Source: Candidatus Woesearchaeota archaeon (lineage in GTDB: Archaea; Nanobdellota; Nanobdellia; Woesearchaeales; WJIZ01). Taken from it: a stretch of 64,000 nt of DNA. This document shows positions 7,591 through 51,013 of this stretch, piece after piece. Made by a program: the position numbers and the translations under genes. Positions within the stretch are counted from its first letter, which is position 1, and the number at the start of each line of letters is the position of its first letter. Location of the stretch: assembly GCA_018303125.1 (NCBI GenBank), contig JAGVYS010000003.1:637-64636 (forward strand), read 5' to 3'. The notes beneath the pieces are model-generated. The model ran no database searches and was not told the origin of the DNA. It was given only the letters and a program-made list of their open reading frames with translations.

Positions 7591-7672
7591 CGGAATCCCA
7601 GAACTAATGCTTTTCAGGCAATGCCCAATTTAGCGCAAACTATTTAAATTTGTTACAATGGCTGCAATATAG

Positions 7673-16313: not shown

Positions 16314-16413
16314 TTTTATTTTATTTGTTTAAACTGAAGTCCAATCCCTTCCCAGAGGAAAATCTCCCCAGAAGAAATTCCAATGGAAATGGAAAGGGCT
16401 TGGAGGTAATGAT

Positions 16414-19425: not shown

Positions 19426-20568
19426 TCAGGCAGCAACCTTCCACATTGCCTCGATGTTGGTGATGGAGAATCTGGCGTAGCCGATCGGATCCGCCCCAAA
19501 ATGGTGCAGATCATGTTCGGCGAACACCGTTTCACCATCCCATTGCCGCAAGATTTTGACAGCTTTTGCCAGATCCTCGGTGATCGTTGGTGAACCATCA
19601 CCTACTGCGAGGTCCCAATCCATCAGGACGGGCACATCAGCGGCGTGGACTTCTTTGCCGAGCAGTTGCTCCAGATTGACTGGCAGCATCTGACCTGAGT
19701 TGACATGCACGAACCCATCGAACAGACCTGCCTCATTGGTTCGCCTGGTGCCGTCCTCGACAGTTATGCCAGATGCCAACAGATGAGCCCATTCGTTATT
19801 GAGCCACAGACCCTTCCAGCCAAGCTCCTTGTTAACCTCGTTGCAGAACTTGATTGCCAACGCCAGCGTCGGGATGATATCGAGGACAGGGTCTCCAGGT
19901 TTGAACTCAATGTGCATCTTCCGTTCATGGCCTGTTTCGGTCTTCACCCGGCGCAGGACATTGACGATTCCGTCTCTTAGTTGACCCCACTTCTTCGATT
20001 TTGGAATCAATTCATTGGAAACCATGAGGTCCTTAGGGATGTTTTTGATGGGATTCCCATCTCCTGCCGGCCAGATGATGGTTTTTCCCTCTCCAAGCCC
20101 CTTCTCCTCGAACTCCAGTGCCAATGACACGGCCTCCACATGAAGATCCTCCGCCATCTGCCGACGATTGGCGTCAGGATGGAAGAACGCACCGAGCTCC
20201 GTCCCTGGATAGCCAAATGCAGGCGCAGTGAACGCCAACACTTTCGGGAAACGCCCAGAACGGATTCCCTTGACTAGGTTATCCTTGCCGATCGCGCCGG
20301 GCTTGTCAATGAGCTCGGAATACTGTGGTTGAGATGTTCTGATTTCCAATCCGATATGGAAGCTTGATCTCAGTTCGAGGCCAAGCTCTTCTCCAAGCGA
20401 CTTCACCTCCTTCAGACGGTCACTTACCTTGACGTAACCAGCTTTTGGATCACCTCCGCCGAACTTGAAGTTTGCAGGTCGTGGGTTTACGACCCATGAG
20501 GGCACTGAATGAATGATTTGCTTTGACATTGCTTTATCTCCTAAAGGAGCTCTTTTCCAGCCCTTCAT
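19426..20568 (-). CDS. xylose-isomerase / L-rhamnose-isomerase-like TIM-barrel sugar isomerase
   Basis: 380 aa; HIEFKPGDP resembles the xylose isomerase FAIEPKPNEP metal-site motif. Confidence 0.65.
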   Translation of the reverse strand: MKGWKRAPLGDKAMSKQIIHSVPSWVVNPRPANFKFGGGDPKAGYVKVSDRLKEVKSLGEELGLELRSSFHIGLEIRTSQPQYSELIDKPGAIGKDNLVKGIRSGRFPKVLAFTAPAFGYPGTELGAFFHPDANRRQMAEDLHVEAVSLALEFEEKGLGEGKTIIWPAGDGNPIKNIPKDLMVSNELIPKSKKWGQLRDGIVNVLRRVKTETGHERKMHIEFKPGDPVLDIIPTLALAIKFCNEVNKELGWKGLWLNNEWAHLLASGITVEDGTRRTNEAGLFDGFVHVNSGQMLPVNLEQLLGKEVHAADVPVLMDWDLAVGDGSPTITEDLAKAVKILRQWDGETVFAEHDLHHFGADPIGYARFSITNIEAMWKVAA

Positions 20569-20848
20569 ATGTTAAGGCCGTTCTGATCCAGCTCCACATA
20601 AGACCAGAGAGATTTATCGATAACCTCTTTAGAGGGAATGATGCCAAATCCCACAAAGCATCATTTTTTCACAGCAGCTCTCGAGTTGAGGCTGTCTTAG
20701 AAGAACATTCCAATGTTCTTCCGTTGTGCTTACAAGCACACGTCCTCCCACCTTGGTAGATAGGAGGAAGCGTGACTGCAAACGAAACAAAGGTAGCTCT
20801 CCGAACTAACTTTCAAAGAGAAAATCCTTTGTTTTACGTTACCGCCAA

Positions 20849-21847
20849 TCACGTAGCCAGCGGGAACTTCCTGTTGAACTTCCGCATAGCTTTGACGCAA
20901 GTCTCCGATTGCTCACGGGCATTTGGATTGAAGCACAAATCCATTGCTCGCCAGTCATAACCCTCGGGCAGACCAGTGAAGAACTCTTCGGCAGCCGGAA
21001 ACAACTTGTCGAATTTCAGAATGCCTGCGCCGAATTCATCGTGAGTAGAGGTTCCTGGACCATTCGGAGACTCTCGGTGTAGTTCCCCCTTGGTGTCAAT
21101 CCAGTGGACGTGCTTCACAAACGGACCGATTTCACGCATGAACCCAATCTGTTCCTCGCCTTTTGTGTTGGTGTGATCTTTTGCGAAGGTGTCGATTTCG
21201 CCGATCTGTTCTGCACCCATGCAACCTACGGTGTGGCCGTGACAAGTGTCATACAGTGAACCAACATTTTTGACGCCGGCATCTGAGAGGGCCTTGTGAA
21301 ACCTCACCACATCACGTGGTTTATTGATACCAAACATTGGCTCAAACTCAATGACGATTGTGAGGCCTTCGTTTCCGGCAATTTCCCCAAAGCGCTTGAA
21401 TCTTTTGACATAGACCTCAATTGCACCTTCGACACCAATACCTTGCGGGCCATAGATACGGCTCGGAGGATCGATGAAGTCCATGCGCATACGCGGCGTA
21501 TTTAATCCGCCTTTGCCGCACCATTTGGCGTTTTTGATCACTGCGCTCTCGAGACGGTCAGTGTCGCTGAAGAAGCTGAGATCCTGATTCCAGAAATCAC
21601 CGGCGACCCCGCTTATTGTCATGCCGTGTTCTTCCAGCAAGGCCAAGAACAAAGCAATGGATGTAGTGCTTCCGCAGTTATTCGGATCTGGGTGTGGACC
21701 CTTCCCAAAGAGTTCAACCCCGTCGAACCCGAGCCCGTGCTTTTTCCCGAGGAACTTGATTATGGAAACAATGTCCATTTGTTGGGTCTTCAAGAACAAA
21801 AAGGCCCATAGCCCCATAGATATGCGATAGTTAGGCTTTTTAGCCAT
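20849..21847 (-). CDS. sugar-phosphate isomerase/epimerase (xylose-isomerase-like TIM barrel)
   Basis: 332 aa with the GxELF, IEFEP and HWID features of the family. Confidence 0.65.
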   Translation of the reverse strand: MAKKPNYRISMGLWAFLFLKTQQMDIVSIIKFLGKKHGLGFDGVELFGKGPHPDPNNCGSTTSIALFLALLEEHGMTISGVAGDFWNQDLSFFSDTDRLESAVIKNAKWCGKGGLNTPRMRMDFIDPPSRIYGPQGIGVEGAIEVYVKRFKRFGEIAGNEGLTIVIEFEPMFGINKPRDVVRFHKALSDAGVKNVGSLYDTCHGHTVGCMGAEQIGEIDTFAKDHTNTKGEEQIGFMREIGPFVKHVHWIDTKGELHRESPNGPGTSTHDEFGAGILKFDKLFPAAEEFFTGLPEGYDWRAMDLCFNPNAREQSETCVKAMRKFNRKFPLAT

Positions 21848-26159: not shown

Positions 26160-27560
26160 ATGTTTTTTATGGCAAAACCCGCGATTTTTGACTTCATATC
26201 ACCGCTTGATTACAGGTACTATGGCAGCATACCTGAAATAAAGGATTACCTTTCAGAATCCTCTTTTATTGTATACCTTGGAAAATTTGAGGCCTCGCTT
26301 GCAAAATGCCTGGCAAGAAGGAAGCTCTGCCCTGATTCTGTTGCCGCAGAGATAGAAAAGGCATCCAGAGCAGTATCTGCAGAGGAAGTGTATGAGGAAG
26401 AAGAAAGGATAAGGCATAACATAAGGGCCTTGGCTAACACAATAAGAAAGAAGGTAAGCGATGAAGCAAAGCCATATGTTCATCTTTCTGCAACGAGCCA
26501 TGACGCAATATGCTCTGCCGATGCTGCAAGGTTCAGGGATTTTGCAAATAAGTCACTAATAAAGGTCCTTCTTTCCCTTGAATCAACTCTGATAAAGATA
26601 GCGATGCAGGAAAAAGCTACATTGCAGATAGGCAGGACCCATGGCCAGCATGCAGAGCCTATAACATTCGGCTTTGCTGTTGCGCAGTATGTCTCAAGGC
26701 TTGGAAAAAGGATATTGCTGATACAAAAAACAGCAAATGACCTTAGGGGCAAGCTTGCTGGTGCGGTCGGCGCCTATAATGCGCCTTCCCTGATTATCAA
26801 GGACTCTGAGGCATTTGAGGAAGAAGTTTTGGCTGAGCTTGGAATAAAGCCATCCCCCATATCAACGCAGGTTGTTGAAGCCGAGTACATGGCTGATTTT
26901 GTACATGCGGTGATAAGCTGCTTTGGAGTTCTTGCAAACATTTCAGATGACATGCGCCACCTGCAAAGGTCGGAAATCTCAGAAATAAGGGAGCAGTTCG
27001 GGAATGACCAGGTTGGCAGTTCCACAATGCCACACAAGATGAACCCCATAAATTTTGAGAACGTCAAATCAATGTGGAAGGAGTTCATGCCAAGGATGTC
27101 TACGCTCTACCTTGACCAGATATCCGAGCACCAAAGAGATTTAACAAATTCAGCATCTTCAAGATTTGTGCCTGAGATTCTTGCTGCCCTTTACCTTTCC
27201 GCAGCAAGGCTTGACAAGACTTTGTCAAAAATCGAAGTAAATTCCTCTGCCTTGAAGAAAAACTTTGATTCAGGAAAGGACATGATTACCGCAGAGCCTC
27301 TCTATGTGCTTCTTTCCTCAAAGGGCCATCCTGATGCGCATGAGCACGCAAGAAAATTATCCTTGAAATCAAGGGAAATCAAGGAAAGCATCTATTCTCT
27401 TGCAATGAAGGACAAGGAGCTTGAGCCTTACATGAAAAAGCTAACAAAAGAACAGCTGGAAATATTGAAGAGTCCTGAAAAATATACTGGCATTGCCGAG
27501 AAAAAAACTGTTTCCATATGCGAGGAATGGGAAGAGAAGATTAAGGATATTTCTGTATAG
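26160..27560 (+). CDS. purB: adenylosuccinate lyase
   Basis: Lyase signature SSTMPHKMNPINFEN and an N-terminal ISPLDYRYYG; 466 aa. The real start may be the Met at 26169. Confidence 0.9.
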   Translation: MFFMAKPAIFDFISPLDYRYYGSIPEIKDYLSESSFIVYLGKFEASLAKCLARRKLCPDSVAAEIEKASRAVSAEEVYEEEERIRHNIRALANTIRKKVSDEAKPYVHLSATSHDAICSADAARFRDFANKSLIKVLLSLESTLIKIAMQEKATLQIGRTHGQHAEPITFGFAVAQYVSRLGKRILLIQKTANDLRGKLAGAVGAYNAPSLIIKDSEAFEEEVLAELGIKPSPISTQVVEAEYMADFVHAVISCFGVLANISDDMRHLQRSEISEIREQFGNDQVGSSTMPHKMNPINFENVKSMWKEFMPRMSTLYLDQISEHQRDLTNSASSRFVPEILAALYLSAARLDKTLSKIEVNSSALKKNFDSGKDMITAEPLYVLLSSKGHPDAHEHARKLSLKSREIKESIYSLAMKDKELEPYMKKLTKEQLEILKSPEKYTGIAEKKTVSICEEWEEKIKDISV

Positions 27561-27561
27561 A

Positions 27562-28800
27562 TTAAACTGCTCGGGTTAATAGTGGTCTGTCCGGTATATC
27601 TAAGAGTGGCCTATAAGGTATGCCCTTTTTCAAGCGAGATTGTCTAGTACTAACAATTTTATCACCCTCTCCTTGATACATATTAAAAACTTCTGAGTTA
27701 TGCACATTTACACCTCTATTTATGCCATCCAGCAATCCTCTCAATGCCATTATTGATTCCATATACAGTGAGCCTGTGAAGCCACCATATTTTCCCTGGT
27801 GCTGTCTATGCGGCTCAAGTACTAAAGGTACAAGGCCATCCAATCCTAATCCTTTTAACTTTCTTCTTATCCTAGGGATTATCTGCGTGAACTCTGCAAG
27901 AATGACCTGGTAGTTGCTATCTCCTTGTCCTGCAGGAGAATGCGGCCACTCTGCAGTCTCGATACTTTCTCCATTTTTAATAGCATAATCAGATGGTGCA
28001 TCCTTTATGTGAAGCCCAGCTAAAAATTGTTTTAGTTCACGAAAACTTTGCAATGCAGCATTTTCACGTTTATTCTGCCTGACATCATTTGCACCATCAT
28101 GATACGCAAAAAACTTTAAGCCATCAGGATTACCAGTAATATCCTCTATAATCTGCCTCAAGGTATATCCAGTATTCCCGAACAATCCTGTTTCATTCTC
28201 AAGAAATCCGACCAAGCCGGCTCTTTTTAAGTCTCGCCCGACATACCTTAAGAGAGCAATAGCATCCCTGTACTGTTCATTTCTATTGGCAGCCATAGGA
28301 TTTTCTCTCGTTCCTGGATAAAACGAGAACATTCTTATTATTCTTGTATCCAGTGCATTTGCTGCCCTCACAACTCCGTTCGTAACTTTAGCAATATCTG
28401 AAACTGATGCCGCTCCAATCCATTGTTTTCCTAATGGGGAACCAACATCATTAGCTTTCACGCCATAATCCTTTGCCATGTCTGCATACCTTTGAAGACT
28501 TTTTTTGGGTGCATTAGAAACATTATACACAACTTGAGAATCACTAAGCTCACCGAGCTTTTTTCTATACTCTTCTGTCGGTAAATTATCAAAATGCTCT
28601 AATTTTGCCCTATCAACAAAGCTGAAAAATCTCGCAGAAAGCTCAAGGCCATGTTTAGCAAGAAATTCAAAGTGCTCTTTTGCATGCAGAGAATACTCAT
28701 CACCAAAAGCAACTATCTTCACTACAGGTTCTGGCTGATATGTCATTTTCCAGAAAACGCATCCGAGCGTGTATAAATACTTTTTCAAAATAACTACCAT
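27562..28800 (-). CDS. hypothetical protein, possibly a xylose-isomerase-like TIM-barrel fold
   Basis: 412-aa ORF with low host-like GC; KIVAFGDEY...EHFEFLAKHGLE resembles TIM-barrel isomerase N-termini. The start may be the internal MTYQPEP at 28746. Confidence 0.45.
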   Translation of the reverse strand: MVVILKKYLYTLGCVFWKMTYQPEPVVKIVAFGDEYSLHAKEHFEFLAKHGLELSARFFSFVDRAKLEHFDNLPTEEYRKKLGELSDSQVVYNVSNAPKKSLQRYADMAKDYGVKANDVGSPLGKQWIGAASVSDIAKVTNGVVRAANALDTRIIRMFSFYPGTRENPMAANRNEQYRDAIALLRYVGRDLKRAGLVGFLENETGLFGNTGYTLRQIIEDITGNPDGLKFFAYHDGANDVRQNKRENAALQSFRELKQFLAGLHIKDAPSDYAIKNGESIETAEWPHSPAGQGDSNYQVILAEFTQIIPRIRRKLKGLGLDGLVPLVLEPHRQHQGKYGGFTGSLYMESIMALRGLLDGINRGVNVHNSEVFNMYQGEGDKIVSTRQSRLKKGIPYRPLLDIPDRPLLTRAV

Positions 28801-33763: not shown

Positions 33764-36493
33764 TCACTGGGATGGCAAAGTCAAGTTATAAAAAGCAAAT
33801 AGCTGTTCTGCAAGAGGCTCAAGTATCTCACTAGGAAAGCAGAATCTAAGTTCTGTGAACTGTCTGCGGAATTTGGTAATTTCACCAGCAACATTTTTTC
33901 CTTTCAATGCTTCGGCAGTATAGCCGGCAAGTGTTTCAAAGTCTCCATTGTTCATTCCCCATCTTGTCATCTCCTGTGTGCCCGTCCTTATGCACGAGCC
34001 ATCTGAAAAGCCAGCATCCCTGTCAATGCCTTGGGAACTTGTGATGATGTTATTATCTTCAAGCACTCTTGCAAAATAAGGCCCCCGATTTTTTCCCACA
34101 TTGATAATCACCTGATGTGATTGTGTATAGCCAACACTTGGGTTGCCTTCTACTTTTACACCCTCTTCAATTAATCCCCTGGCATAAGCTTTCGCATTGC
34201 TTAGTACCAGTGGCTGGTATCCTGCACGGAAAGCAAGCATCTCCTGTGCTGCAACATAGGCCCCCAAAAGAGTTCCGGGGTGGTGGTTGCTGCTGCTTCC
34301 TGGGAAAGCGCCCTTCTCAACAGCGCTCCATAATGGGCTTAGGTAGTCTCCTTCAACTATATTGCTTGCGACAATTCCCCTTTGTGTACCAAAGAAAGTT
34401 TTGTGTATTGAGCCGGTTACAAAATCTATTCCTTCATTAAATGGCTCCTGGAAATTCGAGCCAAAAAGCCCCATCACATGTGAGCCGTCATACATCACAA
34501 CAGGCCTGTGCTTAAGCCCTGAAACTATCTCTATTATCTGTCTCACAGGCTCAGGGCCAAGAGTCATGCTTTTTCCAAGTATTATCAGGTCCAGCCATGA
34601 TATGGAAGCTAGTTCATGTATCAGGTCAGAGGTTTTATCGAGGTCAATCTCGAAAGGATTGTCTTTTCTAACAGGGAACGCATCAATGCAGTATCTTCCT
34701 GATGCAGGATCTCTTGCAATGAAATTCTTAAGCTCGCCTCTGAGCTGTGCGCTGAGATGCCCCCCCATCATCAGGTCGTGAGCAAGTGCCCTAAGCCTTC
34801 TTGCCTCGCCTTTCTCTCCTCGGTTGACATATTCAGTAAGAGCTTTGTAAAGCACAAGGTTGGCTTGCTGCCCTGAAATTGGCCTTGCCTCCACATTTCT
34901 GCATCCAAGATATTCCCTCATTGATGCTTCAAATTTAGCTTGGACTTCAAGTATAAAATCAGTACCCTGATAGTATGCTACTGGCTGGTTGCGGTCAAAT
35001 GCCAGAATCCTTGAATTCTCTGCATATCTTCCAGGGTCGGCAATTGAAAGTAGCGCAGCATGAGGTGAAAGCATGCTCTCGGAAGCTATGAGATTGAATG
35101 TCTCAGTGTGCCTTCTATTTCTCTCATTGGCTGCTTGTGTGATGACCGTTTTCACGGCTTCTAGCCTATCAGAAGAGGATAACATATGATAATTTCTATG
35201 TACCTCAGGATGTATTACAGGCCTTACATAAGGTGCAGCCACTCTCATGTTAGGCACACCCACAACAGCAGGCACTTTATTGTTCCTTATCTCAATATCC
35301 ACATTTACACCATAATCCCTTGGGTCTATTGCAGGGTCAACAAGGGCAAGCCCTATTGCACGCGTATTATTATTTTCGGTAATTTCAGAAATCATCCCTC
35401 TTGTAGTTATTTCCCAGAAAGGCACACATGTACCGCTTGTAACGTATCCTATATGGCTACTGCCATTCCATACTTTGTATCCATTCCTGGGCGGATTTCT
35501 TCCAGGGCCATCTTTGTTTTGGTTTAAGATAGCAATAGGCATTAGCGCATAAGGCACTGCTCTCTCTTCCATGCCCTTAAAAACACCCCTCTTCCAGCCC
35601 TGCACCTCGAGATACTGTTCCCAGAGTGCTTCCCTCCCGATAAAATCGCCTTTGCTGTTCTCGAACCTGGTTGCCATCCTGCCTATAGGGACAGAAAAAA
35701 CAGGAATATCTTTTCCGTCAGGGCCTTTTCCGAATTCATGCCCATATAACGGCAACGCTGATTCAAGCCTTAATGTGTCTCTTGCGCCAAGCCCTACAGC
35801 AACAAAGCCATGTTGTTCTCCTATTTCATAAATCATATCCCAGAGACTTGCTGCCTTTGCCCTGTCCATAAAAAGCTCGAAGCATACAGGCTCTCCTGTA
35901 TAGCCTGTCCTTGCGATTACTAGCTCAGTTCCTTCAAAACTTGCAGTTGATACCATGTTCCTTTTGTTTTCAGGCAACTCTCCTGAGGATACAATCTGCT
36001 CAAGGACTCGCTGGGAATTCGGCCCCTGGAGTGCAAACATCTGCACTTCCTCACTCCTGTCAACTAGGCCAACATCAAATTTTTTTGCATTCTCTCTTAG
36101 CCAGCCGAGGTCTTTTGCCCTATTGGATGCATTGACTACAAGAAGAAATTGCTTTTTGTCAAGCCTGTAAAGATATGCATCATCAATAGCATTGCCCTTC
36201 TCATCAGGTATTACAGTGTATTGGGCTTCTCCCTTGCGGAGAGCTAGTGCATTGTTTGTAAGAACATGATTAAGAAAAGGAACAGCACCTTCTCCGGAAA
36301 CAAAAAACCTTCCCATGTGCGAGATGTCAAACAATCCCGCATTTTTTCTTGTTGAGCGGTGCTCGAATAAAGTTCCTGTGCCGCCCCTTTGTTCATTGTA
36401 AGAAATAGGCATTTCAAAGCCGCCAAAAGGAGACATAGTGGCTCTGGCCTTGTGCCATTCATGCAAGACAGTTTCGGAAAGACCTTCTGGCAT
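33764..36493 (-). CDS. apparent fusion protein: N-terminal aminomethyltransferase (GcvT-like folate-binding) plus C-terminal serine hydroxymethyltransferase-like PLP domain
   Basis: One 909-aa ORF. N-terminus: FGGFEMPISY, LFDISHMG (GcvT signatures). C-terminus: FNLIASESMLSPHAALLS (SHMT LIASEN-like), GSIHKTFFGTQRGIV (SHMT PLP-lysine region THKT..GPRGG). Confidence 0.65.
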   Translation of the reverse strand: MPEGLSETVLHEWHKARATMSPFGGFEMPISYNEQRGGTGTLFEHRSTRKNAGLFDISHMGRFFVSGEGAVPFLNHVLTNNALALRKGEAQYTVIPDEKGNAIDDAYLYRLDKKQFLLVVNASNRAKDLGWLRENAKKFDVGLVDRSEEVQMFALQGPNSQRVLEQIVSSGELPENKRNMVSTASFEGTELVIARTGYTGEPVCFELFMDRAKAASLWDMIYEIGEQHGFVAVGLGARDTLRLESALPLYGHEFGKGPDGKDIPVFSVPIGRMATRFENSKGDFIGREALWEQYLEVQGWKRGVFKGMEERAVPYALMPIAILNQNKDGPGRNPPRNGYKVWNGSSHIGYVTSGTCVPFWEITTRGMISEITENNNTRAIGLALVDPAIDPRDYGVNVDIEIRNNKVPAVVGVPNMRVAAPYVRPVIHPEVHRNYHMLSSSDRLEAVKTVITQAANERNRRHTETFNLIASESMLSPHAALLSIADPGRYAENSRILAFDRNQPVAYYQGTDFILEVQAKFEASMREYLGCRNVEARPISGQQANLVLYKALTEYVNRGEKGEARRLRALAHDLMMGGHLSAQLRGELKNFIARDPASGRYCIDAFPVRKDNPFEIDLDKTSDLIHELASISWLDLIILGKSMTLGPEPVRQIIEIVSGLKHRPVVMYDGSHVMGLFGSNFQEPFNEGIDFVTGSIHKTFFGTQRGIVASNIVEGDYLSPLWSAVEKGAFPGSSSNHHPGTLLGAYVAAQEMLAFRAGYQPLVLSNAKAYARGLIEEGVKVEGNPSVGYTQSHQVIINVGKNRGPYFARVLEDNNIITSSQGIDRDAGFSDGSCIRTGTQEMTRWGMNNGDFETLAGYTAEALKGKNVAGEITKFRRQFTELRFCFPSEILEPLAEQLFAFYNLTLPSQ

Positions 36494-36937
36494 TATTTCT
36501 ACCCCTCTACTCCAGAGTGGTGCTTATTTATATATATTTCTTCTTATCGGGTTTTAAAGGCATAATCATGGCTTAGAATTGTCTCTGAAACAAATAATCA
36601 GCCTAAATCAAACGCCATACTCCATAGCGGCATTTATACCAGGAAAAGAAGATTTCAGACTTGCTAAAATGCCTTCAAGTTCTTTTCCATCCATTCTCCT
36701 TGCCTCATGCAAAGGATTAGGTTCTATCCTGACGCTTATTTTTATGTCCAAGGTCCGGTTAAAGTATTCAGAGAACGCTTCCTTCAATTGTCCGAGGCCA
36801 TTAATTGTACCTAAAACTGAGCCACCAATTTCATTGGGCAATCTGCCACTGTATCCAATTAGTTTTCCCGGTATATGATAAAAACTTATAAAATAATTGT
36901 CCATGCAGATATAGATATCAATATTTGCTTAAAAATT

Positions 36938-37531
36938 TTACCTTGAGGCATCAGCCTGTCTTTCTACTTCCAATTTCTTGGAGATTGCATGCGAGGTATT
37001 GCTCATGCCGTATGCATTTATTATCTCTTCTGCTATGCAGTTCTCTATGCTCTTCTTTGAGTTGAAGCTTTTCCAGAAACTTCCCTGTACGAAATGCCGC
37101 AAGGCAAGATCAATTCTTCTTTGTGGAGAGCATTCCACGGCCTTGGGGTATCTTGCTCCTCCGTATTCTATGGTTATTATCTCTTCCCTCTGCGCGGCAT
37201 TCTCAAGCGCCTGCACGTAAACTTTGATAGGATTCTGCTTCAGCTTGCTCTCTATTATTTCAAATGCCTTCTCTATTATCCTGTAAGCATTGTCTGCCTT
37301 GCCTGTGACATGGCCTGATGATTTGAAATGCTCTTTGCCCTTATGGCCTGGCACCATCACCTTGTTTATCAATCTCTCGACGATAAATATCTTGCTCTTG
37401 TGGAATCTGTTGCCCGCATATCTGGAACCGGTCTTGGGCACTACTTTTGGCTCAAGCGTGATATATCTGGTAAGTCCCGGATCACTGACCTTAACATCAG
37501 AAACATCCCACCTGTTGAATGCAAGTATCAT
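36938..37531 (-). CDS. rps7: 30S ribosomal protein S7 (uS7)
   Basis: Archaeal S7 architecture ([20 protein letters not shown]...); last gene of the rpo-S12-S7 operon. Confidence 0.9.
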
Positions 37532-37965
37532 TTTCTAGCCTTCTCCAGCTTGCCCTTCCTGAGCGCATCAAGGCTCTGGTCATTTACTTGTATAACTTGC
37601 CATCTTATGCCTGGCAAATCTCCCTTGGCTTTTCCCATGGAGCCGCCTATGCACTCAACAAGCACTTCATCGTGCTCGTCAACGAGCTTCGTTGCGCCGT
37701 CTCCTGGAAGAAATGCGCTTATCTGCCTGCCATTCTTTATGAGCTGGACCCTTACGGCCTTCCTCATGCCTGAATTTGGTTGCTTAGCCTCTACCTGTAT
37801 CTTCTCAAGGACAAGTGCCTTTGCCTGTGAAGAACCCTCTAGCGGGTCGGACTTTGACTTCAGGTCAAGTGTCTTTCTTACGAACCACTTATCCTTCCAT
37901 TTGGATACCGCCCTTCTCTTCATCAGCTTCTTTGCCGAATTTATTCCCCTTGATTTGTGTCCCAT
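37528..37965 (-). CDS. rps12: 30S ribosomal protein S12 (uS12)
   Basis: [29 protein letters not shown] conserved core. Confidence 0.9.
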
Positions 37966-38002
37966 TTTATTTCGTGTACAGCGAGCATATTTAAACCTTT
38001 TC

Positions 38003-38407
38003 TCAGGCTACGCTCACATCCTCCACATTAAAGTGCCTCTTTACTATTGAGCTTATCCTGCCTAAGTTTGACCTGTCCCTTCCTATCAATCTTGCCCTTG
38101 TCTCCCTGTCTCCTCCTTTTATTATCAGATTCTTTCCCTCAAGCTTGGCCTCAGCCACGAGAGGGTGTATGATGTTTGAGACGAATTTTTCAACATTTTC
38201 ATCGAATTCAAGCACCTTGACATGCTTCCTGAGTGCAGACTCAACGCTTTTCAGGTTTCTCATGTTTCTGCCCATGGCAAGGCCCATGTCGCCCTTCTCG
38301 ACTATGAACATGGCCAAATCAGGAATACAATCCTTTACTCTTGCCCCGGTCATTGATTCGAAGAATGTGATGAGCCCGAGGGTGGATAAATCATACACCT
38401 TCCTCAA
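38003..38407 (-). CDS. nusA: archaeal NusA-like transcription factor (tandem KH domains)
   Basis: 134 aa with two KH-like GxxG regions ([20 protein letters not shown]); conserved position between L30e and S12. Confidence 0.8.
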
Positions 38408-38674
38408 TCAGCCCCTCACCTTTCCTATTGCAGATATGGAAAATTGCCTCTTGCACAGTATCCCGAACTCATTCCCGTCTACGGCAAGCTCAGTCACAGG
38501 CACGTTTGATATGGCAGCATATCTAAGTATGTCTGCCTTTGCCTTCTGTGAAACAGTGGAGGAAAGCCATATTGCTTCTATGCTCCTGCCTGATAATCCA
38601 TTCAGTACGCTGTTCACTCCAACAACTAGCTTTTTCTGCTTTGCCAGCTTTTTTATCTCAGTATCGTCGCTCAT
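38408..38674 (-). CDS. rpl30e: 50S ribosomal protein L30e (eL30)
   Basis: 88 aa at the conserved position between rpoA'' and nusA; L30e-like pattern (KLVVGVNSVLNGLSGRS...). Confidence 0.75.
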   Translation of the reverse strand: MSDDTEIKKLAKQKKLVVGVNSVLNGLSGRSIEAIWLSSTVSQKAKADILRYAAISNVPVTELAVDGNEFGILCKRQFSISAIGKVRG

Positions 38675-38675
38675 T

Positions 38676-39809
38676 TCACTTCTTTACCTTTGTTACCAGA
38701 CTTGGCAAGCCTGTTCCTATTGGCACTGGCTGGTTTATCATGACATTTTCTACAACAGATTCAAGATAGTCTATCTCTCCCACGAGTGCTGCGTTTATTA
38801 TGTGCTTAAGCGGGGTCTCGAAAGACGCCCTTGCAAGAACAGATGACTTTTCTGATACTACCCCATACCTCGTTATCCCCCTTACATACCCTGAGTTGCA
38901 CATAACATCCGCAACAAGCATTATGTGCCTTATGTCCACGTTGAGGCCCTGGCTCTCTATTACGCCATACACTTCATTTATGACAGCTTGTCTAGCAGCC
39001 TCTATTCCCAGAACAGATGCTATCTCGAATATGTTGTTTGTTTTTGTCCTTTCGGGCTCAACAAATTCAAGCTTTAGCACATCTTTGAGGTTGGAACCTG
39101 CTGTTATTATGATATATTCATCTCCTCTCTTTACAGGAAGCACATGGCTTATTCCCTTTACGCCCTTCATGTGCGTGGCCTTGATTTTCTCCTTTACCTT
39201 GTACAGGTCATTGAGGTTGATGTCCTTTGACCTGCTCTTGAGCTCCATGCTGTCATCATCGACCTTTATGTTGAAACCTTTAGTTTGCGCCTTGAGGCTG
39301 TTTACAACAGTAGCAACAGTGAAGCTTGCATTTCTCATTAGCTCCCTATCAAGCTTTATCAGTATGGATAGGTCAACTATGTTTATCTCAAATCCTAAGG
39401 AGATGTCATCAAGCGTTGTTTCCTTTATTGACAATGCCAGCTTTTTTATGTCCTTGCCCTCTGAATATGGCTTATTCAGATAAATCTCCATGCTTGGCGT
39501 GCTAAGCTCTTTTCTTCCGTCAAGTATCTCTATAATTCTTGGCAGCCCAACAGTAACGTTCATCTCTGCCACACCCGCAAAGTGGAAAGTATTTAGGGTC
39601 ATTTGGGTGCTTGGCTCTCCTATTGATTCAGCAGATATGTTGCCGATGCATTCTCCTGGGTCAGCCTTGGATTCGTTATACTCTGCTACGGTCTGCTCAA
39701 GTATCTGTTTTAGCTTTGCCTGGCTTATGCTTGCAGGTATGTTTTCCCTAAGGCTGTCAATTATGCTCTTTGGCAGCTTGTCCTCATATTCTTTTATTGC
39801 GTCTGTCAT
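38676..39809 (-). CDS. rpoA2: DNA-directed RNA polymerase subunit A''
   Basis: 377-aa homolog of the C-terminal part of Rpb1/beta' (...[19 protein letters not shown]...); operon context. Confidence 0.9.
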
Positions 39810-39810
39810 T

Positions 39811-42411
39811 TTAAAGGTTTGACTTTATTATTCTCTTCACGTTTACTATTCCTTTTTCGGACTTTGAAACATCTATGCCGTCCTCACCATACTCAAACTG
39901 GACTATCCTTCCGGATGCGTTCCTTACTGTGTAATCATATTCTATTTTCAAGTCTTGCATCGCATTGGCAAGCCTCCTGTATAGGTATCCTGATTTTGGT
40001 GTTCTCAGGGCGGTATCCATCAAGGAGTCTCTTCCTGTCATTGAGCCGAAGAAAAATTCTGCAGGAGTGAGGCCTGTCTTGAACCCGTTTGTTATGAATC
40101 CTCGTGCAATCGGCGTCAAATCTTGCTCTCTGAAGCATGAAAGTGTCCTTTTGTTATAACCTTTGTCTATTCTTTTTCCGCGCAGTGCCTGCTGCCCGAC
40201 GCAAGTAGCCATCTGGGCGAGGTTTATCAGGTTGCCTCTTGCTCCTGACACTGCCATTATCATGGTATGGCTTTCCTTGTCGGCATAATTCGCAACAAGC
40301 TCACCTGCCTTGTTTCTTGCGCTGTTAAGCAATTCCAGTATCTTCAGCTCAAGGCTTTCCTCAATGCTCTTTCCAGGGAAGGCATCAAAGTTGCCCTGCC
40401 TGTAGGTGACTATAAGCTCGTCTACTTCTTTCCTTACGTTTTCCATGACCTCGTTTATCTTTGCCTTTGCATCTGAAGGCAGGTCAGTGTCTGATATCGC
40501 AGTTGAGAATCCATACCTTATAAGCACCTGTATTCCTAGCTTGAATATATCCCCTATAAGCTTGATTGCGTATTCTTTTCCGTACTTCTTGTGAATATTT
40601 CTTAGCAGTAAACCAGAGCCTTCTCCAAGGTTGTTCTTGTCCATGACACCCTCTGTAAGCTTGCCATTGGATATTACAACCTTGTCGCTTCCCTTCTCAT
40701 CCTTGCTCCTTGAATGCCCTGTAAAATTGAAGTCCTTTGGCAGGATTGCGGAAAATATCTCCTTGCCAGTTATCTTTTCCTTGTTTGGAAGGGAAAAATC
40801 CTTTATTCCTGCGGAATAAAGCACGTCAAATGCCTCTTCCTTGGGAAATGTCAGCCCTTTGGTCAGTATGTAATTCCCTGATATGGCATCCTGTATGCAG
40901 CCTATGACGCTCAATCCATACCTTGGTGATATGAGCTGCGTCTGTACTTCCATCAGTATCTCTGCTTCAGCCCTTGCTTCCTCTGTCTGGGGTATGTGCA
41001 GGTTCATCTCATCCCCGTCAAAGTCAGCGTTATATGGATTGCATACGCTTGGGTTCAGCCTTAGGGTCCTTCCTGGCAGCACCCTTACCCTGTGGCACAT
41101 CATTGACATCCTGTGCAATGAAGGCTGCCTGTTGAAAATGGCAATGTCGCCATCAAGAAGGTGCCTCTCTACTGTATAGCCAGGCTGCAACTCTTCAAGT
41201 GACGCTTCTTTAGTCTCGTCAGTTATTTTCTTTTTCTTGCCATCAGGCCTTACTATGTAATTTGCACCAGGGTACTTTTCAGGCCCCTTTTCCACGAATT
41301 TCTTTAAGTATGAAACATTCCAGTCGTTCACTCTTTCAGGAACAGTGAGCTTCATTGCAATAACCAAAGGCACTCCGACTTCATTGAGGCCGATCATCGG
41401 GTCAGGAGAGATTACTGTCCTCGCTGAAAAGTTGGTCCTCTTTCCTGCCAGATTATGCCTTATTCTTCCTTCCTTGCTCTTTATCCTCTCTGATATTGTC
41501 CTTAATGCTTGGCCTGAGCGGTGCCTTGCGGGAGGCAGTTGTGCAACAGAATTGTCAAAGAAAGTAGTGATATGATATTGCAGTAAATCCCATAAGTCCT
41601 CTATGATTATCTCAGGCGCACCAGCGTTTATGTTTTCAAACAGCCTCTGGTTTATCCTTACTATGTCGCCTAGCTTGTGCGTAAGGTCATCCTCGCTCCT
41701 CTCGCCTGATTCAAGCGTTATTGACGGCCTCATTGTTACAGGCGGTATGGCCATTATTGTGAGGACCATCCATTCTGGCCTTATGTGAATAGGATTCATG
41801 CCAAAAAGGAATACATCGTCATCAGGTATTTTTTCAAGCCTTACCCTAATCTCTATCGGGCTAAGCCTCTTCTCCTCTTCAAGGAATGTTGTTGGCTTCT
41901 CAAGGGAAATCTTATGCTGCTTGGCCTTGCAGTGCGGGCATTTGTTTACAGTCTTCATGCTCGATATTACTTTCCTTATCTCCAGCCTTCTCGACTCTAT
42001 CCCAGATTCCTCTTCTATCTTGTCGAGATCAGCCTTTGCCTTCGCAATCTTGGCTTGGGGTATAAGGACCCTTCCACATTCCCTGCATGTAGACATCAGC
42101 ATATTGTATATCAGGTTTACAAACTTTATGTGTATGACAGGCCTTGCCAGCTCTATGTATCCAAAATGCCCTACGCATTCCTTCAGCTTTGAGCCGCATG
42201 TCTTGCATTTCAATCCTGGGTCAATTACGCCAAGCCTAATGTCCATCAGGCCGCCATCCACAGGATACCCTTCCTTATCATAAAGCTCAGGCGTGACAAC
42301 TTTAGCAGCGGACATCTTCTTTATCATCTTCGGGGAGAAAACAGAAAACTGTATGCTACCTATCCTCTTGCTTACCGAAGGTTCCGGTTCCTCAATTCTT
42401 TCTTCAGGCAT
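39811..42411 (-). CDS. rpoA1: DNA-directed RNA polymerase subunit A'
   Basis: 866 aa with Zn-binding [21 protein letters not shown] and the catalytic [10 protein letters not shown] motif. Confidence 0.95.
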
Positions 42412-42412
42412 T

Positions 42413-44215
42413 TTAGTACTTTGACTCCAGATTCAGCCTTGGATATATTCCCAGGCTCTTAAACTCATCAAGTATCAGCTTGAAAGCATAGCTTATCTCT
42501 ATGTCGCTTATATTTACATTATCTCCGCATATTGGGCAGTATCTCCTGTTCCTGTACTCATCATTTACTGCTATAAGCCCGCATTCTTCGCATACAGGAA
42601 CTATTGTGTTGTCAGAGCTGAACCTTTCTTTGAGGAGCAGCGATGCACCATGTGCTATGAAAGTGTCCTTTTCCATTTCTCCCAGCCTCAGGCCCCCTTC
42701 CTTTGCCCTTCCTTCGGTTGGTTGCCTTGTCAGGAGCTGTATAGGCCCTCTTGCCCTTGCGTGGAGCTTGTTGGCAACCATGTGCTTGAGCTTAAGGTAA
42801 TACATGTCTCCCACGAATATCTTTGCCTGCATCCTATTTCCAGTCTCTCCATTATAGAATGTTTCAGTTCCATTTTCCCTGAAACCTCTCTGCAGCAGCT
42901 CTTTCCTCAGCTGCTCTTCCGGCTCAGCATCAAATGTGGTTCCATCTATATATCTCCCGCTGAGTGCTCCCACTTTTCCTCCTACCATTTCTATGAGGTG
43001 TGCTATTGTCATTCTTGAAGGTATTCCGTGAGGTGAGAATATTATGTCTGGCACAATTCCTGATGATGAAAATGGCATGTCAGCAGGCGGCACTATTATC
43101 CCGACTATTCCTTTTTGCCCGTGCCTGGAGGTAAATTTATCGCCTATTTCAGGAATCCTTGAATCCCTGACTCTTACCTGTATCAGCCTGTTGCCTTCTT
43201 CGTTCTCTGTAATAAGAACAATGTCAACGGTTCCTTTTTCACCGTGCTTGAGGCTTAGAGAGCTTTCCCTTCTTGTCGCCGAAGCTATATTGTACTCATC
43301 AAGTGAGCTCAGGAACCTTGGCGGGGAAGTCTTGCCTATAATGACATCTCCTTCATCTACCCCTGCCTCAGGGTAAATTATGCCGTCTTCCTCGAGGAAC
43401 CTGTAATCCTTCTCTGTCTTGTATCCTTTTACATCCTTATCAGGAATGGATATCTCGTCAATTAGGCCACCTGCATACCTTAGCTCTTCAGCCACGCTTG
43501 GCCTGAAATAAGTGCTCCTTCCGAAGCCCCTGTCTATGGATCCCCTGTTTATGACTATGGCGTCTTCCATGTTATAACCCTTGTAGCTCATTATCGCGAT
43601 TACTATGTTCTGCCCGTTAGGGTGGGAGTCATAATTCCATACATCATTCATTAGGGTCTGGACTATCGGCTTTTGAGGTGAATGCAATATATTGACATCC
43701 ATGTCAAGCCTTACAGGATAATTTGATGCATAAATGCCAACGGCTTGCTTCTGGTTCTTTGAGCCTGCATTCAGCCTCGTTGACTGGTTGAAATTGCCAT
43801 AAGGTACAAGAGCTGAGCATAAGCCAAGCATTGTCAAAGGGGAAATCTCAAGATGGGTATGCGTGCTGGTAAGCTCATTAGCCCTGAAAGCTATGAGGCA
43901 GTTTTCCTCTTCGGCAGCATCAACGTACTCTATGATGCCTTCCTTAATCAGGTCATGCCATGCCATTTCTCCCCTGTTTAGCCGGTCATAATGCTGCTGC
44001 GTGATTGAGGGCTTGCCTTCCTTTGCTACTATGAGCGGCCTTCTTGTCCTTCCTGCATCTGTTTCTATGAAGACATCTCCAGTTATGCTCTCACGGTAGA
44101 CATTCACATTGTTATGTAATGCGCCACTTCTTCTCTCTTCCTTTAGCCTGCTGACAAAAGAGGAAGAATCATCAACCTCCCCTATAAGCTTACTGTTTAT
44201 GAATACTTCTACCAT
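42413..44215 (-). CDS. rpoB1: DNA-directed RNA polymerase subunit B' (C-terminal part of split B)
   Basis: 600 aa with ...GDKFTSRHGQKGIVG... and a C-terminal Zn-ribbon (CEECG...CPICG). Confidence 0.95.
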   Translation of the reverse strand: MVEVFINSKLIGEVDDSSSFVSRLKEERRSGALHNNVNVYRESITGDVFIETDAGRTRRPLIVAKEGKPSITQQHYDRLNRGEMAWHDLIKEGIIEYVDAAEEENCLIAFRANELTSTHTHLEISPLTMLGLCSALVPYGNFNQSTRLNAGSKNQKQAVGIYASNYPVRLDMDVNILHSPQKPIVQTLMNDVWNYDSHPNGQNIVIAIMSYKGYNMEDAIVINRGSIDRGFGRSTYFRPSVAEELRYAGGLIDEISIPDKDVKGYKTEKDYRFLEEDGIIYPEAGVDEGDVIIGKTSPPRFLSSLDEYNIASATRRESSLSLKHGEKGTVDIVLITENEEGNRLIQVRVRDSRIPEIGDKFTSRHGQKGIVGIIVPPADMPFSSSGIVPDIIFSPHGIPSRMTIAHLIEMVGGKVGALSGRYIDGTTFDAEPEEQLRKELLQRGFRENGTETFYNGETGNRMQAKIFVGDMYYLKLKHMVANKLHARARGPIQLLTRQPTEGRAKEGGLRLGEMEKDTFIAHGASLLLKERFSSDNTIVPVCEECGLIAVNDEYRNRRYCPICGDNVNISDIEISYAFKLILDEFKSLGIYPRLNLESKY

Positions 44216-44216
44216 T

Positions 44217-45704
44217 TTACCACAATGTCCTCATTCCACAATCCTTCATTATTTTTATGGCATCCTCTTCTGAGCCTGCCTTTGATACCGATGCCAAAAG
44301 GGAGAGATTTTTCCTCAGCCCTATGTTTGTTCCTTCAGGTGTCTCTATAGGGCATAGCCTCCCCAGATGAGTTGCATGCAATGCCCTTGCCTCGAAATTC
44401 TCCTGGGATGCACTAAGAGGGCTGACAACTCTCTGGAGATGGGATATTGTTTCAAGGAAATTAAGCCTTTGAATTCTCTGGCATACTCCTTTCCTTCCTC
44501 CAACCCAGTTTCCTGTTGCCATTGCTGAATCTATTCTCTGTGTGAGCAGCTTTTCCCTTATTATCGCCCTTATTGATGGGAATTTGCCTCTCTTTACTAT
44601 CCTCTGGAAATTATAAAGCAAATCGCCAACAAGAACCTTGAAATTGACCCTCAATAAGTCGGAGAGAAGGTCGCCGCTTAGCTTAAGCTTCTTGTTCATG
44701 TAATGGTCCTTGTCATTAACAGGCACAACGCCATTGGATACAATCAGGTATCTTTTCAGGAATTTGCAGAGATTGTAAGCCTTGTATACCCTGTCCTTTT
44801 CCTCTATGCCTAGATGTGGCAGCAGGTACTTGTCAAGAATCTCTTTCATCCTCTCCACCCTTACTTCCTTTGTCTGGGTTATCCCTATTTTTCTTGCTAT
44901 GTAATCTATGGCCTCTTCCTCGGTTTTTATTGATACGAACTCATAGAGGTTTATGAGCATCTCATCATATGATTTTTCAGCGCTTATGAACTTCATTATC
45001 TCCTCATCTTTGAGGAGTCCAAGCGCCTTTATCAGGACAACAATAGGTATCCTTTTTACCCTCGTGAAAGTCAGGTAAAATATTCCATCGCTGAGCCTCT
45101 CCAATGTATGCGGGATCTTGAATGAGCCTCTTTCAGAGAATATTTTTCCAACATATTTGCTTGGCCCTACTGCGCCTTTTTCTATCAGGATATGGTTGGG
45201 TGCAAGGTCTTCTATGTGGACCAGTACCTTTTCAGTTCCGTTGATTATGAAATATCCTCCCGGGTCATCAGGGTCCTCTCCTTTCTCGATAAGCTCCTGC
45301 CTTCCCATTTTATCCAAGTGGCAGTTCTTGCTCTTGAGCATTATCGGAAGATTTCCTATTTGGGTTGTCAATGATTCCCTCTGCACATCGTTGATGTATG
45401 CAGAAACGTCCACGAATATGGGGGCAGAATAAGTTATTTTCCTGAGCCTTGCCTCGAATGGATAAATGTTCCTCTTTGATCCATCAGCCTCTGTTATCTC
45501 AGGCTTTGTCACCCATATCTTGTCAAACCTTATCTTGAAGCTGTCTATGTTCTGCGGTATTATTGTCGGCTCTATTATCCTGTTCTCGAGGATTATATCA
45601 TTGAGCTCCTTCTCTATGAGATTGTTGAAGGACTCTATATCAGAACCTACAAAACTATGTTCCTTGAAATAGCTCTTTATGAGAACTTCTGATTCCTTAT
45701 ACAT
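44217..45704 (-). CDS. rpoB2: DNA-directed RNA polymerase subunit B'' (N-terminal part of split B)
   Basis: 495 aa homologous to the N-terminal lobe and protrusion regions of Rpb2/beta. Confidence 0.9.
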   Translation of the reverse strand: MYKESEVLIKSYFKEHSFVGSDIESFNNLIEKELNDIILENRIIEPTIIPQNIDSFKIRFDKIWVTKPEITEADGSKRNIYPFEARLRKITYSAPIFVDVSAYINDVQRESLTTQIGNLPIMLKSKNCHLDKMGRQELIEKGEDPDDPGGYFIINGTEKVLVHIEDLAPNHILIEKGAVGPSKYVGKIFSERGSFKIPHTLERLSDGIFYLTFTRVKRIPIVVLIKALGLLKDEEIMKFISAEKSYDEMLINLYEFVSIKTEEEAIDYIARKIGITQTKEVRVERMKEILDKYLLPHLGIEEKDRVYKAYNLCKFLKRYLIVSNGVVPVNDKDHYMNKKLKLSGDLLSDLLRVNFKVLVGDLLYNFQRIVKRGKFPSIRAIIREKLLTQRIDSAMATGNWVGGRKGVCQRIQRLNFLETISHLQRVVSPLSASQENFEARALHATHLGRLCPIETPEGTNIGLRKNLSLLASVSKAGSEEDAIKIMKDCGMRTLW

Positions 45705-45942: not shown

Positions 45943-45956
45943 TCTTATTCCTTTAC

Positions 45957-46041
45957 GGGCCGTACGAGATTCGAACTCGCGACCCCCTGATTGCTTCTGC
46001 CTTAAAAGTCAGGTGCTCTAGCCAGGCTGAGCTAACGGCCC
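45957..46041 (-). tRNA. tRNA-Lys(UUU) with an ~11-nt intron in the anticodon loop
   Basis: Reverse complement: GGGCCGT TA GCTC AGCCTGGCTA GAGC A CCTGA CTTTTA[AGGCAGAAGCA]A TCAGG GGGTC GCGAG TTCGAAT CTCGT ACGGCCC. Confidence 0.75.
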
Positions 46042-46044
46042 AAA

Positions 46045-48479: not shown

Positions 48480-49076
48480 ATGATCAAAGAGAATAAAATA
48501 CCCTTAAAAGTGTGTCTAATTGACTTGAATGAAGCATATCAAAAGGTATTGTATTGGTTCTTTTCATTTCCTGGCAGGAATATAGGCCTCAATGAATTGT
48601 CATCAGCTTTGCGGATTTCTAAAACAACTGCAAAAAAGGTTGTTGTAGATCTTGAAAAGGAAGGTTTTCTGAAAAGGAAGGTTTATGGAAAAACCTGGGT
48701 AATCTCGTGCGATGTCAGCCATAATTTCAATTTCACAAAAAAAGTGGCTTTCAATTTAGCCATGGTTTTTGGGGCCTACCGGTCGGGCTTGAAAGGCCGC
48801 ATCAATGACTTTGTCGGCAATGCCCAAGCAGTAATCCTTTTTGGCTCCTACAGGAAAGGAGATGACACCGAGAAGAGCGACATTGACATTGCAGTTGAGG
48901 TAGTTGGCAACGCAGATTTGAAAATAATCCAGCTCGGAATAATGCAGCAATTCGGCTACAGGAAAGATGTGCCAATCAACCTACACGTCTTTTCCAGGAA
49001 TAAGGTTGACATAAACATGTTTTCGAATATTGCCAATGGGATTGTATTGGAAGGTTTTCTGGAGGTAAAAGCATGA
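48480..49076 (+). CDS. winged-HTH plus minimal nucleotidyltransferase (MNT) protein, second copy
   Basis: ILFGSYRKGDDTEKSDIDIAV nucleotidyltransferase motif; paralog of 11846..12364. Confidence 0.8.
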   Translation: MIKENKIPLKVCLIDLNEAYQKVLYWFFSFPGRNIGLNELSSALRISKTTAKKVVVDLEKEGFLKRKVYGKTWVISCDVSHNFNFTKKVAFNLAMVFGAYRSGLKGRINDFVGNAQAVILFGSYRKGDDTEKSDIDIAVEVVGNADLKIIQLGIMQQFGYRKDVPINLHVFSRNKVDINMFSNIANGIVLEGFLEVKA

Positions 49077-49468: not shown

Positions 49469-49574
49469 CTATTTGTGTTCTCTGTACAGCTGAAACATCG
49501 CTCGAAAGTCTGGGTTTTTCGGCATTCTGTTTTTCAGGCGCCATTCCTTGTTAATCATCTTGCTTGAAAATAAT

Positions 49575-49657
49575 GCAGGGTAGCGGATTCGAACCGCTGA
49601 ACGCACTAAGCGACAAGGCCCTGAACCTTGCAGGTTTGACCGCTTCCTTAACCCTGC
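49575..49657 (-). tRNA. tRNA-Leu(CAG), class II
   Basis: Reverse complement: GCAGGGT TA AGG AAGCGGTCAAA CCT G CAAGG TTCAGGG CCTTG, long variable arm, then AGCGG TTCGAAT CCGCT ACCCTGC. Confidence 0.75.
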
Positions 49658-49698
49658 GTTGCGCTTTTTTCATTTCCACATTAAACTATGAAGGGAAT

Positions 49699-51012: not shown

Positions 51013-51013
51013 C

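Follow-up and report, generated by a model that had tools for sequence, protein, structure and literature searches.

Introduction

Glycine decarboxylase is coupled to serine hydroxymethyltransferase (SHMT; GlyA, EC 2.1.2.1) in plant photorespiration and in the reductive glycine pathway of bacteria such as Desulfovibrio desulfuricans, and the two reactions have 5,10-methylene-tetrahydrofolate (methylene-THF) in common. In all of the described systems known to us, SHMT and the aminomethyltransferase of glycine cleavage (T-protein or GcvT, EC 2.1.2.10) are separate polypeptides. Here we analyse a gene of Candidatus Woesearchaeota archaeon whose product appears to unite the same two reactions in one chain of 909 amino acids, with an N-terminal T-protein half and a C-terminal SHMT half. 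The gene lies in a 64-kb stretch of contig JAGVYS010000003.1 (assembly GCA_018303125.1, positions 637 to 64,636), hereafter the window, to which coordinates refer unless another locus is named.

A one-carbon (C1)-releasing catalytic domain and a GcvT-fold tetrahydrofolate (THF) domain also share a polypeptide in dimethylglycine dehydrogenase or oxidase (DMGDH/DMGO), the alpha subunit of sarcosine oxidase (SoxA) and trimethylamine N-oxide (TMAO) demethylase (Tdm), an arrangement known to channel C1 units. In those enzymes the GcvT-like domain is C-terminal and the H-protein is not used, whereas the fusion described here has an N-terminal, near-canonical T-protein, a pyridoxal phosphate (PLP)-dependent partner and a link to gcvH and gcvP. 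Stand-alone T-proteins (1yx2, 1woo and E. coli 3a8i) share with the N-terminal half their fold, the catalytic Asp, Asn and Arg, the TGYTGE motif and often the position of gcvT in the genome; the fusion differs from them by a C-terminal SHMT domain of approximately 470 residues and by insertions in the barrel domain, and the window copy differs from gcvT operons in lacking nearby H- or P-protein genes. For the C-terminal half the closest described enzyme is archaeal-type SHMT, represented by that of M. jannaschii (MjSHMT; 4uqv/4bhd), with which it has in common the fold, the motifs S-T-H-K-T-F-F-G-x-Q and F-P-G-x-x-S-N-H-H, and the equivalents of E57, Y65, H126, D200, H203 and R363 (E. coli SHMT numbering). 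It departs from MjSHMT in sequence (identity of approximately 27–28% by Foldseek), in two insertions, in an N347Q replacement and in the fused T-protein. The carrier used by MjSHMT is tetrahydromethanopterin, while THF is presumed for the fusion from its T-domain and its bacterial hosts.

Our preferred interpretation, to which we assign a probability of about 0.75, is that the protein is a bifunctional T-protein/SHMT that would couple glycine cleavage or synthesis to glycine–serine interconversion through methylene-THF, as judged from sequence comparison and a structural model. Both domains are complete and under strong purifying selection, their order is fixed, the junction between them is conserved, and in other genomes the gene is linked to those encoding the H-, P- and L-proteins and lipoylation enzymes. 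Each part belongs to a well-known family with a textbook reaction, and it is the covalent fusion that is new relative to the searchable literature. A full-text search of 8 million papers and preprints found no description of a GcvT-SHMT fusion, although a mention beyond the searched literature or in an InterPro architecture listing is possible; a paper on Dehalobacteriia handles GcvT and GlyA as separate functions and leaves the fusion unmentioned. A first-pass annotation of the window, made from the sequence alone, had regarded the arrangement as non-standard, which holds for the literature but not for the sequence databases, where the fusion is not rare and is labelled just ‘GcvT’.

Results

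Gene structure and domain organization

Translation of the minus strand of 33764..36493 yields a single ATG-initiated open reading frame (ORF) of 909 codons, with its stop codon at 33764-33766; the plus strand of the same interval has stops throughout. The predicted 909-residue protein matches exactly a GenBank entry from a 65-kb contig, MBS3135577.1 (‘glycine cleavage system protein T [Candidatus Woesearchaeota archaeon]’), and the same sequence is recorded in NCBI, Logan and ENA assemblies, that is, in several independent sources. All of the motifs quoted in the first-pass annotation are present: FGGFEMPISY at residues 23-32, LFDISHMG at 54-61, FNLIASESM at 466-474 and GSIHKTFFGTQRGIV at 694-708.

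Residues 1-425 (35219..36493, minus strand) form a complete three-domain T-protein fold according to Pfam, PDB sequence matches, Foldseek and residue mapping. Residues 443-909 (33767..35167, minus strand) form a complete SHMT-fold PLP domain of archaeal type, for which NCBIfam was consulted in addition to the same sources. Between the two lies a linker of residues ~426-442 (35168..35218, minus strand), which is variable in the family alignments and where predicted local distance difference test (pLDDT) scores fall to 58-66 around residues 430-490. The linker is preceded by a conserved junction motif, A-P-P-Y-x-R-P, in which P421 is invariant and Y422 is found in at least 90% of members. The boundary had been anticipated near 35200, which agrees with the position of the linker, and the possibility of a frameshift or missed stop there had been raised; we found neither. 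An AlphaFold2 model built from 72 family sequences is confident, with a mean pLDDT of 87.1 and a predicted template-modelling (TM) score of 0.85. Foldseek against the PDB found no solved chain covering both halves (query-normalised TM score ≤0.39).

The fusion is a widespread, conserved family

In a search of 5.8 billion proteins clustered at 90% identity, the best 120 clusters were all 853-941 residues long, 45-50% identical to the query across 97-99% of its length and colinear with it through the junction, and each carried both PF01571 and PF00464. When one genome per GTDB species was scanned, 80 loci emerged, nearly all full length and 40-47% identical. The orthologue survey suggested by the first-pass annotation thus returned the fusion from at least 120 clusters and 80 species-level loci, in at least 11 bacterial phyla and a second Woesearchaeote. 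Hosts include Thermodesulfobacteriota/Syntrophobacteria/Desulfobacterales, Planctomycetota, Chloroflexota, Acidobacteriota, Gamma- and Alphaproteobacteria, Armatimonadota, Actinomycetota (Thermoleophilia), Spirochaetota and many Bacillota, the last comprising Oscillospiraceae, Christensenellaceae, Lachnospiraceae and Ca. Formimonas warabiya (complete genome), among others; the cluster search added Gemmatimonadota, Latescibacterota and the second Woesearchaeote. The window protein is approximately equidistant (45-50% identity) from all of its relatives, the other Woesearchaeote copy included (47%).

Because the fusion is conserved as a single ORF across many genomes, it is not the product of a missed stop, and an artefact of frameshift, missed stop or chimeric assembly is excluded. 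The wider proposition, that the fusion is either such an artefact or a T-protein with a decayed and inactive C-terminal appendage, retains a negligible probability. It can point to the occurrence of sequencing errors or pseudogenes in the family, of which the in-frame TAG described below is an instance, but it is opposed by the uninterrupted ORF, by the agreement of the NCBI, Logan and ENA records, by colinear homologues on complete chromosomes (Ca. Formimonas warabiya, OY764017 and OZ244909), and by the invariance of all of the PLP-binding residues.

One family member, in a Deltaproteobacteria metagenome-assembled genome (MAG; locus L042, 1-2526), has an in-frame TAG within the C-terminal domain of its T-protein part (…VLEV*IRKK…), which could represent a sequencing error, a pseudogene or read-through. 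This locus was considered as a naturally split GcvT and SHMT pair and rejected, being one gene with an in-frame TAG.

The N-terminal half resembles authentic T-proteins

Pfam scans matched GCV_T, GCV_T_C and SHMT, which bears out the earlier description of a GcvT-like N-terminal part joined to an SHMT-like C-terminal part. GCV_T was matched strongly at residues 10-255 (247.8 bits against a cutoff of 25.6), and GCV_T_C weakly (27.8 bits against 25.9). In a PDB sequence search, residues 8-360 came closest to the T-proteins of B. subtilis (1yx2, 179 bits) and T. maritima (159 bits), and the modelled half superposed with target-normalised Foldseek TM scores of 0.91 to 1woo/1wos and 0.88 to 1yx2/3a8i, over approximately 415-430 columns.

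Functional residues of the E. coli enzymes were mapped by L-INS-i alignment onto an alignment of 121 family members. The N-terminal half of the window protein keeps D104/D105 (E. coli D97), N121 (N113), TGYTGE at 196-201, E206 and R238 (R223). The D105 codon lies at 36179..36181 on the minus strand; D105 is the counterpart of Asp97, the catalytic aspartate of E. coli T-protein (mature numbering), and is invariant in 121/121 aligned members. Conservation across the 121 members is likewise complete at E. coli GcvT N113 and E196, at the Tyr-Thr-Gly-Glu of TGYTGE, at R223 of GLGARD and at E206 of the window protein. Relative to E. coli GcvT, the C-terminal barrel domain of the whole family is longer by an insertion of approximately 16 residues (~362-377).

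The C-terminal half is a divergent branch of SHMT

Pfam SHMT was matched at residues 450-858, across profile positions 7-398 of 399 (73.2 bits against a cutoff of 27). Residues ~507-887 were nearest to MjSHMT in the PDB sequence search (119-122 bits; 4uqv, 122), well above E. coli SHMT (1dfo, ~52-55 bits) and the L-threonine transaldolase ObiH (7k34, ~80 bits), and the modelled half superposed on MjSHMT with a Foldseek TM score of ~0.78. Profile scans and fold comparison thus place it in the SHMT family, as first suggested, rather than in another family of fold-type I. These comparisons indicate that the C-terminal half is a divergent branch of SHMT, nearest to the archaeal type.

The catalytic apparatus is retained. 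Residues 100% conserved in the 121 members (E. coli SHMT numbering) are S35, E36, Y55, E57, Y65, G98, G124-G125-H126-L127, S175, D200, H203, H228, K229, P258 and R363. In the window protein, K698, D669, H579, S642, H672, H697, Y490, E492, Y508 and R836 are the counterparts of E. coli K229, D200, H126, S175, H203, H228, Y55, E57, Y65 and R363. The K698 codon (34400..34402, minus strand) is predicted from the alignments to encode the lysine that forms the Schiff base with PLP; the motif around it is S-T-H-K-T in the family and S-I-H-K-T in the window copy. Y64 and L121 are also kept in the window protein, so that four of the six folate-binding residues compared (Y64, L121, G125 and L127) are represented by Y507, L574, G578 and L580; of the other two, K346 is not conserved and N347 is Gln throughout the family. 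Family-specific replacements relative to E. coli SHMT are S99Q, R235Q (followed directly by an Arg), GGP262-264 to SNH, and R372F, of which SNH and the Gln at R235 are found in MjSHMT as well. The two insertions specific to the family (residues ~556-572 and ~584-604) follow SGQxAN and GGHLS.

A HMMER search of 1.84 billion representatives at 50% identity with residues 441-909 returned 93 clusters at E≤1e-30. Approximately 11 of these were full-length fusions, and a few were stand-alone proteins of 416-485 residues and 39-47% identity (for example P0150, of 457 residues, and P0151); ordinary archaeal-type SHMTs of ~420-450 residues ranked next, at ~32-35% identity. The existence of stand-alone proteins 46-47% identical to it argues that the C-terminal half is an enzyme lineage in its own right. 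The P0151 gene (485 residues, 46% identity; locus L093, 1056-6750) directly follows NuoF-like and molybdopterin formate-dehydrogenase-like genes and is itself followed by genes for an epimerase, an aminotransferase, a PALP enzyme and a NAD kinase and by a GDC-P fragment, on a contig of low coverage (3x). To judge by these neighbours, the setting is one of C1 metabolism, perhaps a formate-to-glycine/serine gene cluster.

Glycine cleavage genes adjoin the fusion in many genomes

ORFs called in the fetched loci were searched with GcvH, GcvPA, GcvPB, LplA, GcvT and GlyA seeds. The gene lies directly beside gcvH, gcvPA or gcvPB in 34 of 79 loci. The gcv genes are on the same strand in 27 of the 34, in the order fusion-gcvH-gcvPA-gcvPB or gcvH-gcvPA-gcvPB-fusion, and on the opposite strand in the other 7, where they lie upstream in six cases and downstream in one, and where lplA accompanies several. 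Of the 45 loci that lack gcv neighbours, many are short, and just 13 have 8 kb or more on each side. No stand-alone gcvT or glyA occurs within 10 kb of the fusion in any of the 79 loci. Since gcv genes adjoin it and no separate gcvT lies within that distance, the fusion is therefore most likely the T-protein of glycine cleavage in organisms with gcv-linked loci, as far as gene order can indicate.

Clustering of neighbouring ORFs also recovered dihydrolipoamide dehydrogenase (lpdA) at 11 loci, lipoyl synthase (lipA) at 7, two groups of lipoate ligases (lplA) at 6 and 5, and a threonine-dehydrogenase-like gene at 5. According to its contig gene table, a Thermodesulfobacteriota MAG has gcvH-gcvPA-gcvPB-lplA on the other strand, approximately 3.4 kb upstream of the fusion and beyond two unrelated genes, and it lacks gcvT. 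The other Woesearchaeote (locus L001, 9365-15098) has a fusion-gcvPA-gcvPB operon; in that locus proA and proC (5956-8123) lie approximately 1.2 kb upstream of the fusion on the opposite strand, separated from it by two small genes.

Alternative functions

Several observations weigh against a bifunctional T-protein/SHMT. With regard to the N-terminal half, GcvT models span residues 5-412 but score below their NCBIfam cutoffs (PRK00389, 281 against 300; TIGR00528, 220.4 against 235.85), a small shortfall that fits the insertions in the third domain. As to its T-protein partners, the 64-kb window has neither gcvH nor gcvP beside the fusion: phmmer with the six seeds at E≤10 detected no gcvH, gcvP, lplA or separate glyA in the window and matched the fusion ORF alone, as the first-pass annotation had stated for gcvH, gcvP and glyA. 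Furthermore, no gcvH was found within 10 kb of the other Woesearchaeote fusion, whereas bacterial operons nearly always include it. With regard to the C-terminal half, the SHMT model PRK00011 aligns over residues 450-887 at 182.1, below its cutoff of 335; N347, which contacts the folate pterin in E. coli SHMT, is Gln in every family member; and the window protein departs from its own family at A202S, T227I, N345S, position 346 (Ser in place of the family Tyr) and P350D. Its S819, S820 and D824 thus replace family N, Y and P in the loop whose E. coli SHMT counterpart touches the pterin, and these unusual substitutions are a caveat on folate binding by the window protein as predicted from the alignment.

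The sub-cutoff SHMT score and the Gln at N347 also speak for a reading in which the C-terminal half is another PLP enzyme of the SHMT fold, such as a threonine or beta-hydroxy-amino-acid aldolase or transaldolase, feeding glycine from a different substrate to glycine cleavage. ObiH is its third-best PDB match, SHMT-family enzymes can cleave threonine, and the five loci with threonine-dehydrogenase-like genes would suit such a role. However, the residues of the folate-dependent step (E57, Y64, Y65, L121, G125 and L127) are conserved, true SHMTs head the matches in both sequence and fold (MjSHMT 122 bits, ObiH 80), and the fluorothreonine transaldolase model TIGR04506 scores 95.2 bits against a cutoff of 650. 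We regard an aldolase or transaldolase as distinctly improbable.

The absence of gcvH and gcvP from the window, and of gcvH near the other Woesearchaeote copy, invites a second alternative, namely that the N-terminal half acts here independently of the H-protein and traps formaldehyde or an iminium from the PLP domain as methylene-THF, much as GcvT-like domains do in the oxidases of dimethylglycine and sarcosine and in TMAO demethylase. Attachment of GcvT-like domains to other catalytic domains is a known design, and 4pab, 1pj5, 2gag and 9q59 are among the PDB matches. Nevertheless, true T-proteins score far higher against the N-terminal half (179 bits) than do these fused folate domains (62-77 bits), NCBIfam models for Tdm and SoxA fall far below their cutoffs on the fusion, and the domain order is the reverse of that in dimethylglycine oxidase-type enzymes. 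The fusion moreover replaces gcvT in gcv operons at 34 loci, and the SHMT fold has a folate site of its own. Trapping without H-protein is thus very unlikely, and a bifunctional T-protein/SHMT remains our preferred interpretation.

Genomic setting of the window gene

In this window, which is archaeal, two putative expression signals precede the gene on the minus strand: a GAGGGG motif of Shine-Dalgarno type 8 nt before the ATG (36502..36507), evident in the sequence, and an AT-rich, TATA-box-like element, AAATATATATAAATAA, read by eye approximately 31-46 nt upstream (36524..36539). This suggests that the fusion gene is transcribed from its own archaeal promoter. Upstream on the same strand (36938-45704) are split rpoB''/rpoB', rpoA'/A'', NusA, S12 and S7 genes. 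In archaeal str operons, rpsG (S7) is usually followed by genes for elongation factors; that place is occupied here by a 98-codon ORF (36608-36904, minus strand) without a Pfam match, lying between rpsG and the fusion gene, at the end of which is a terminator-like hairpin (36629-36613). On the downstream side, a HAD hydrolase gene converges on the fusion, and 8 bp separate its end from the stop codon of the fusion.

The window also contains carA, carB, pyrG, purE, purC and purB (949-9392 and 26160-27560) and a proB-proA-proC cluster for proline synthesis (54670-57799). A minus-strand cluster at 13562-21847, with a G+C content of 0.49-0.50 compared to 0.42-0.44 in the flanks, encodes an FGGY sugar kinase, a GFO/IDH/MocA oxidoreductase and three to four TIM-barrel proteins that resemble xylose isomerase (AP_endonuc_2); it may be a transferred island for sugar or inositol catabolism. 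Another AP_endonuc_2 paralogue is at 27562-28800. Three proteins with nucleotidyltransferase domains (NTP_transf_2/Pol-beta) are scattered across the window (11846-12364, 48480-49076 and 52788-54626), and four consecutive minus-strand ORFs of 166-198 residues (50512-52712) have no Pfam match. Among the transfer RNAs are one at 45955-46042, which Rfam scores at 57 bits and to which ARAGORN gives no definite anticodon, a 97-nt Rfam match at 49698-49794 adjoining an ARAGORN tRNA-Leu (49574-49657), and one cut off by the end of the window (63943-64000). Those that are long or odd may carry archaeal introns.

Discussion

If both halves are active as predicted, the N-terminal half would accept the aminomethyl group that the H-protein carries on its lipoyl arm and, with THF, release NH3 and 5,10-methylene-THF in a reversible reaction, while the PLP-dependent C-terminal half would interconvert serine and THF with glycine and 5,10-methylene-THF, drawing on the same methylene-THF pool. 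SHMT active sites span the dimer interface (through the equivalents of Y55, E57 and Y65) and so use both subunits; hence, the fusion should be at least a dimer, joined by its C-terminal halves and bearing two T-domains. Dimerisation would thus occur through the SHMT half. Covalent linkage would fix the two methylene-THF enzymes at a 1:1 ratio and in proximity, and this proximity may raise the efficiency of the conversion of two glycines to serine, CO2 and NH3, or of its reverse. In the degradative direction, serine would be converted through glycine to two C1 units, CO2 and NH3; in the opposite direction, resembling the reductive glycine pathway, C1 units, CO2 and NH3 would yield glycine and then serine.

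Methylene-THF may also pass directly from one active site to the other. In the strongest form of this idea, the fusion would be a channelling machine that holds folate at an interface or tunnel between the halves and shuttles C1 units directly between the aminomethyl-lipoate of the H-protein and glycine or serine, so that two glycines would become serine, or the reverse, with no release of methylene-THF; the insertions peculiar to the family and the APPY motif at the junction could contribute to such an interface or tunnel. We consider this elaboration unlikely. Were it true, it would offer an advantage to folate-scavenging DPANN archaea and to anaerobes of the reductive-glycine type, and a ready natural part for pathway engineering.

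The fusion has many anaerobic hosts, for which a glycine-based C1 metabolism is plausible, as in bacteria with the reductive glycine pathway. Given these anaerobic hosts, and the stand-alone relative of the C-terminal half beside formate dehydrogenase, use of the fusion in a reductive-glycine-type pathway is plausible in some lineages. For a fermentative DPANN archaeon, the supply of C1 units from serine and glycine is more likely. The car, pyr and pur genes of the window indicate that the organism makes nucleotides, and nucleotide synthesis consumes glycine and C1 units. Because purE, purC, purB, carAB and pyrG are present, the likely role of the fusion in the Woesearchaeote is to supply C1 units and glycine or serine for nucleotide synthesis, with the P- and H-proteins presumably encoded elsewhere in its genome.

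These results bear on how such genomes are interpreted. Fusion proteins are annotated publicly as ‘GcvT’ or ‘aminomethyltransferase’ and nothing more, so that metabolic reconstructions may miss an SHMT activity or miscount glycine and serine pathways; the lineages affected include gut Clostridia, Desulfobacterota and DPANN archaea. For glycine decarboxylase and SHMT of plants, coupling is a subject of long-standing discussion, and a natural covalent link between T-protein and SHMT would be direct evolutionary evidence that coupling two methylene-THF enzymes is beneficial. Such coupling also bears on the reductive glycine pathway, and engineers of synthetic formate or CO2 assimilation, where both activities are needed in balance, could consider the fusion as a candidate part. 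For the Woesearchaeote itself, the fusion would mean that an archaeon of small genome keeps C1, glycine and serine metabolism beside its genes for nucleotide biosynthesis.

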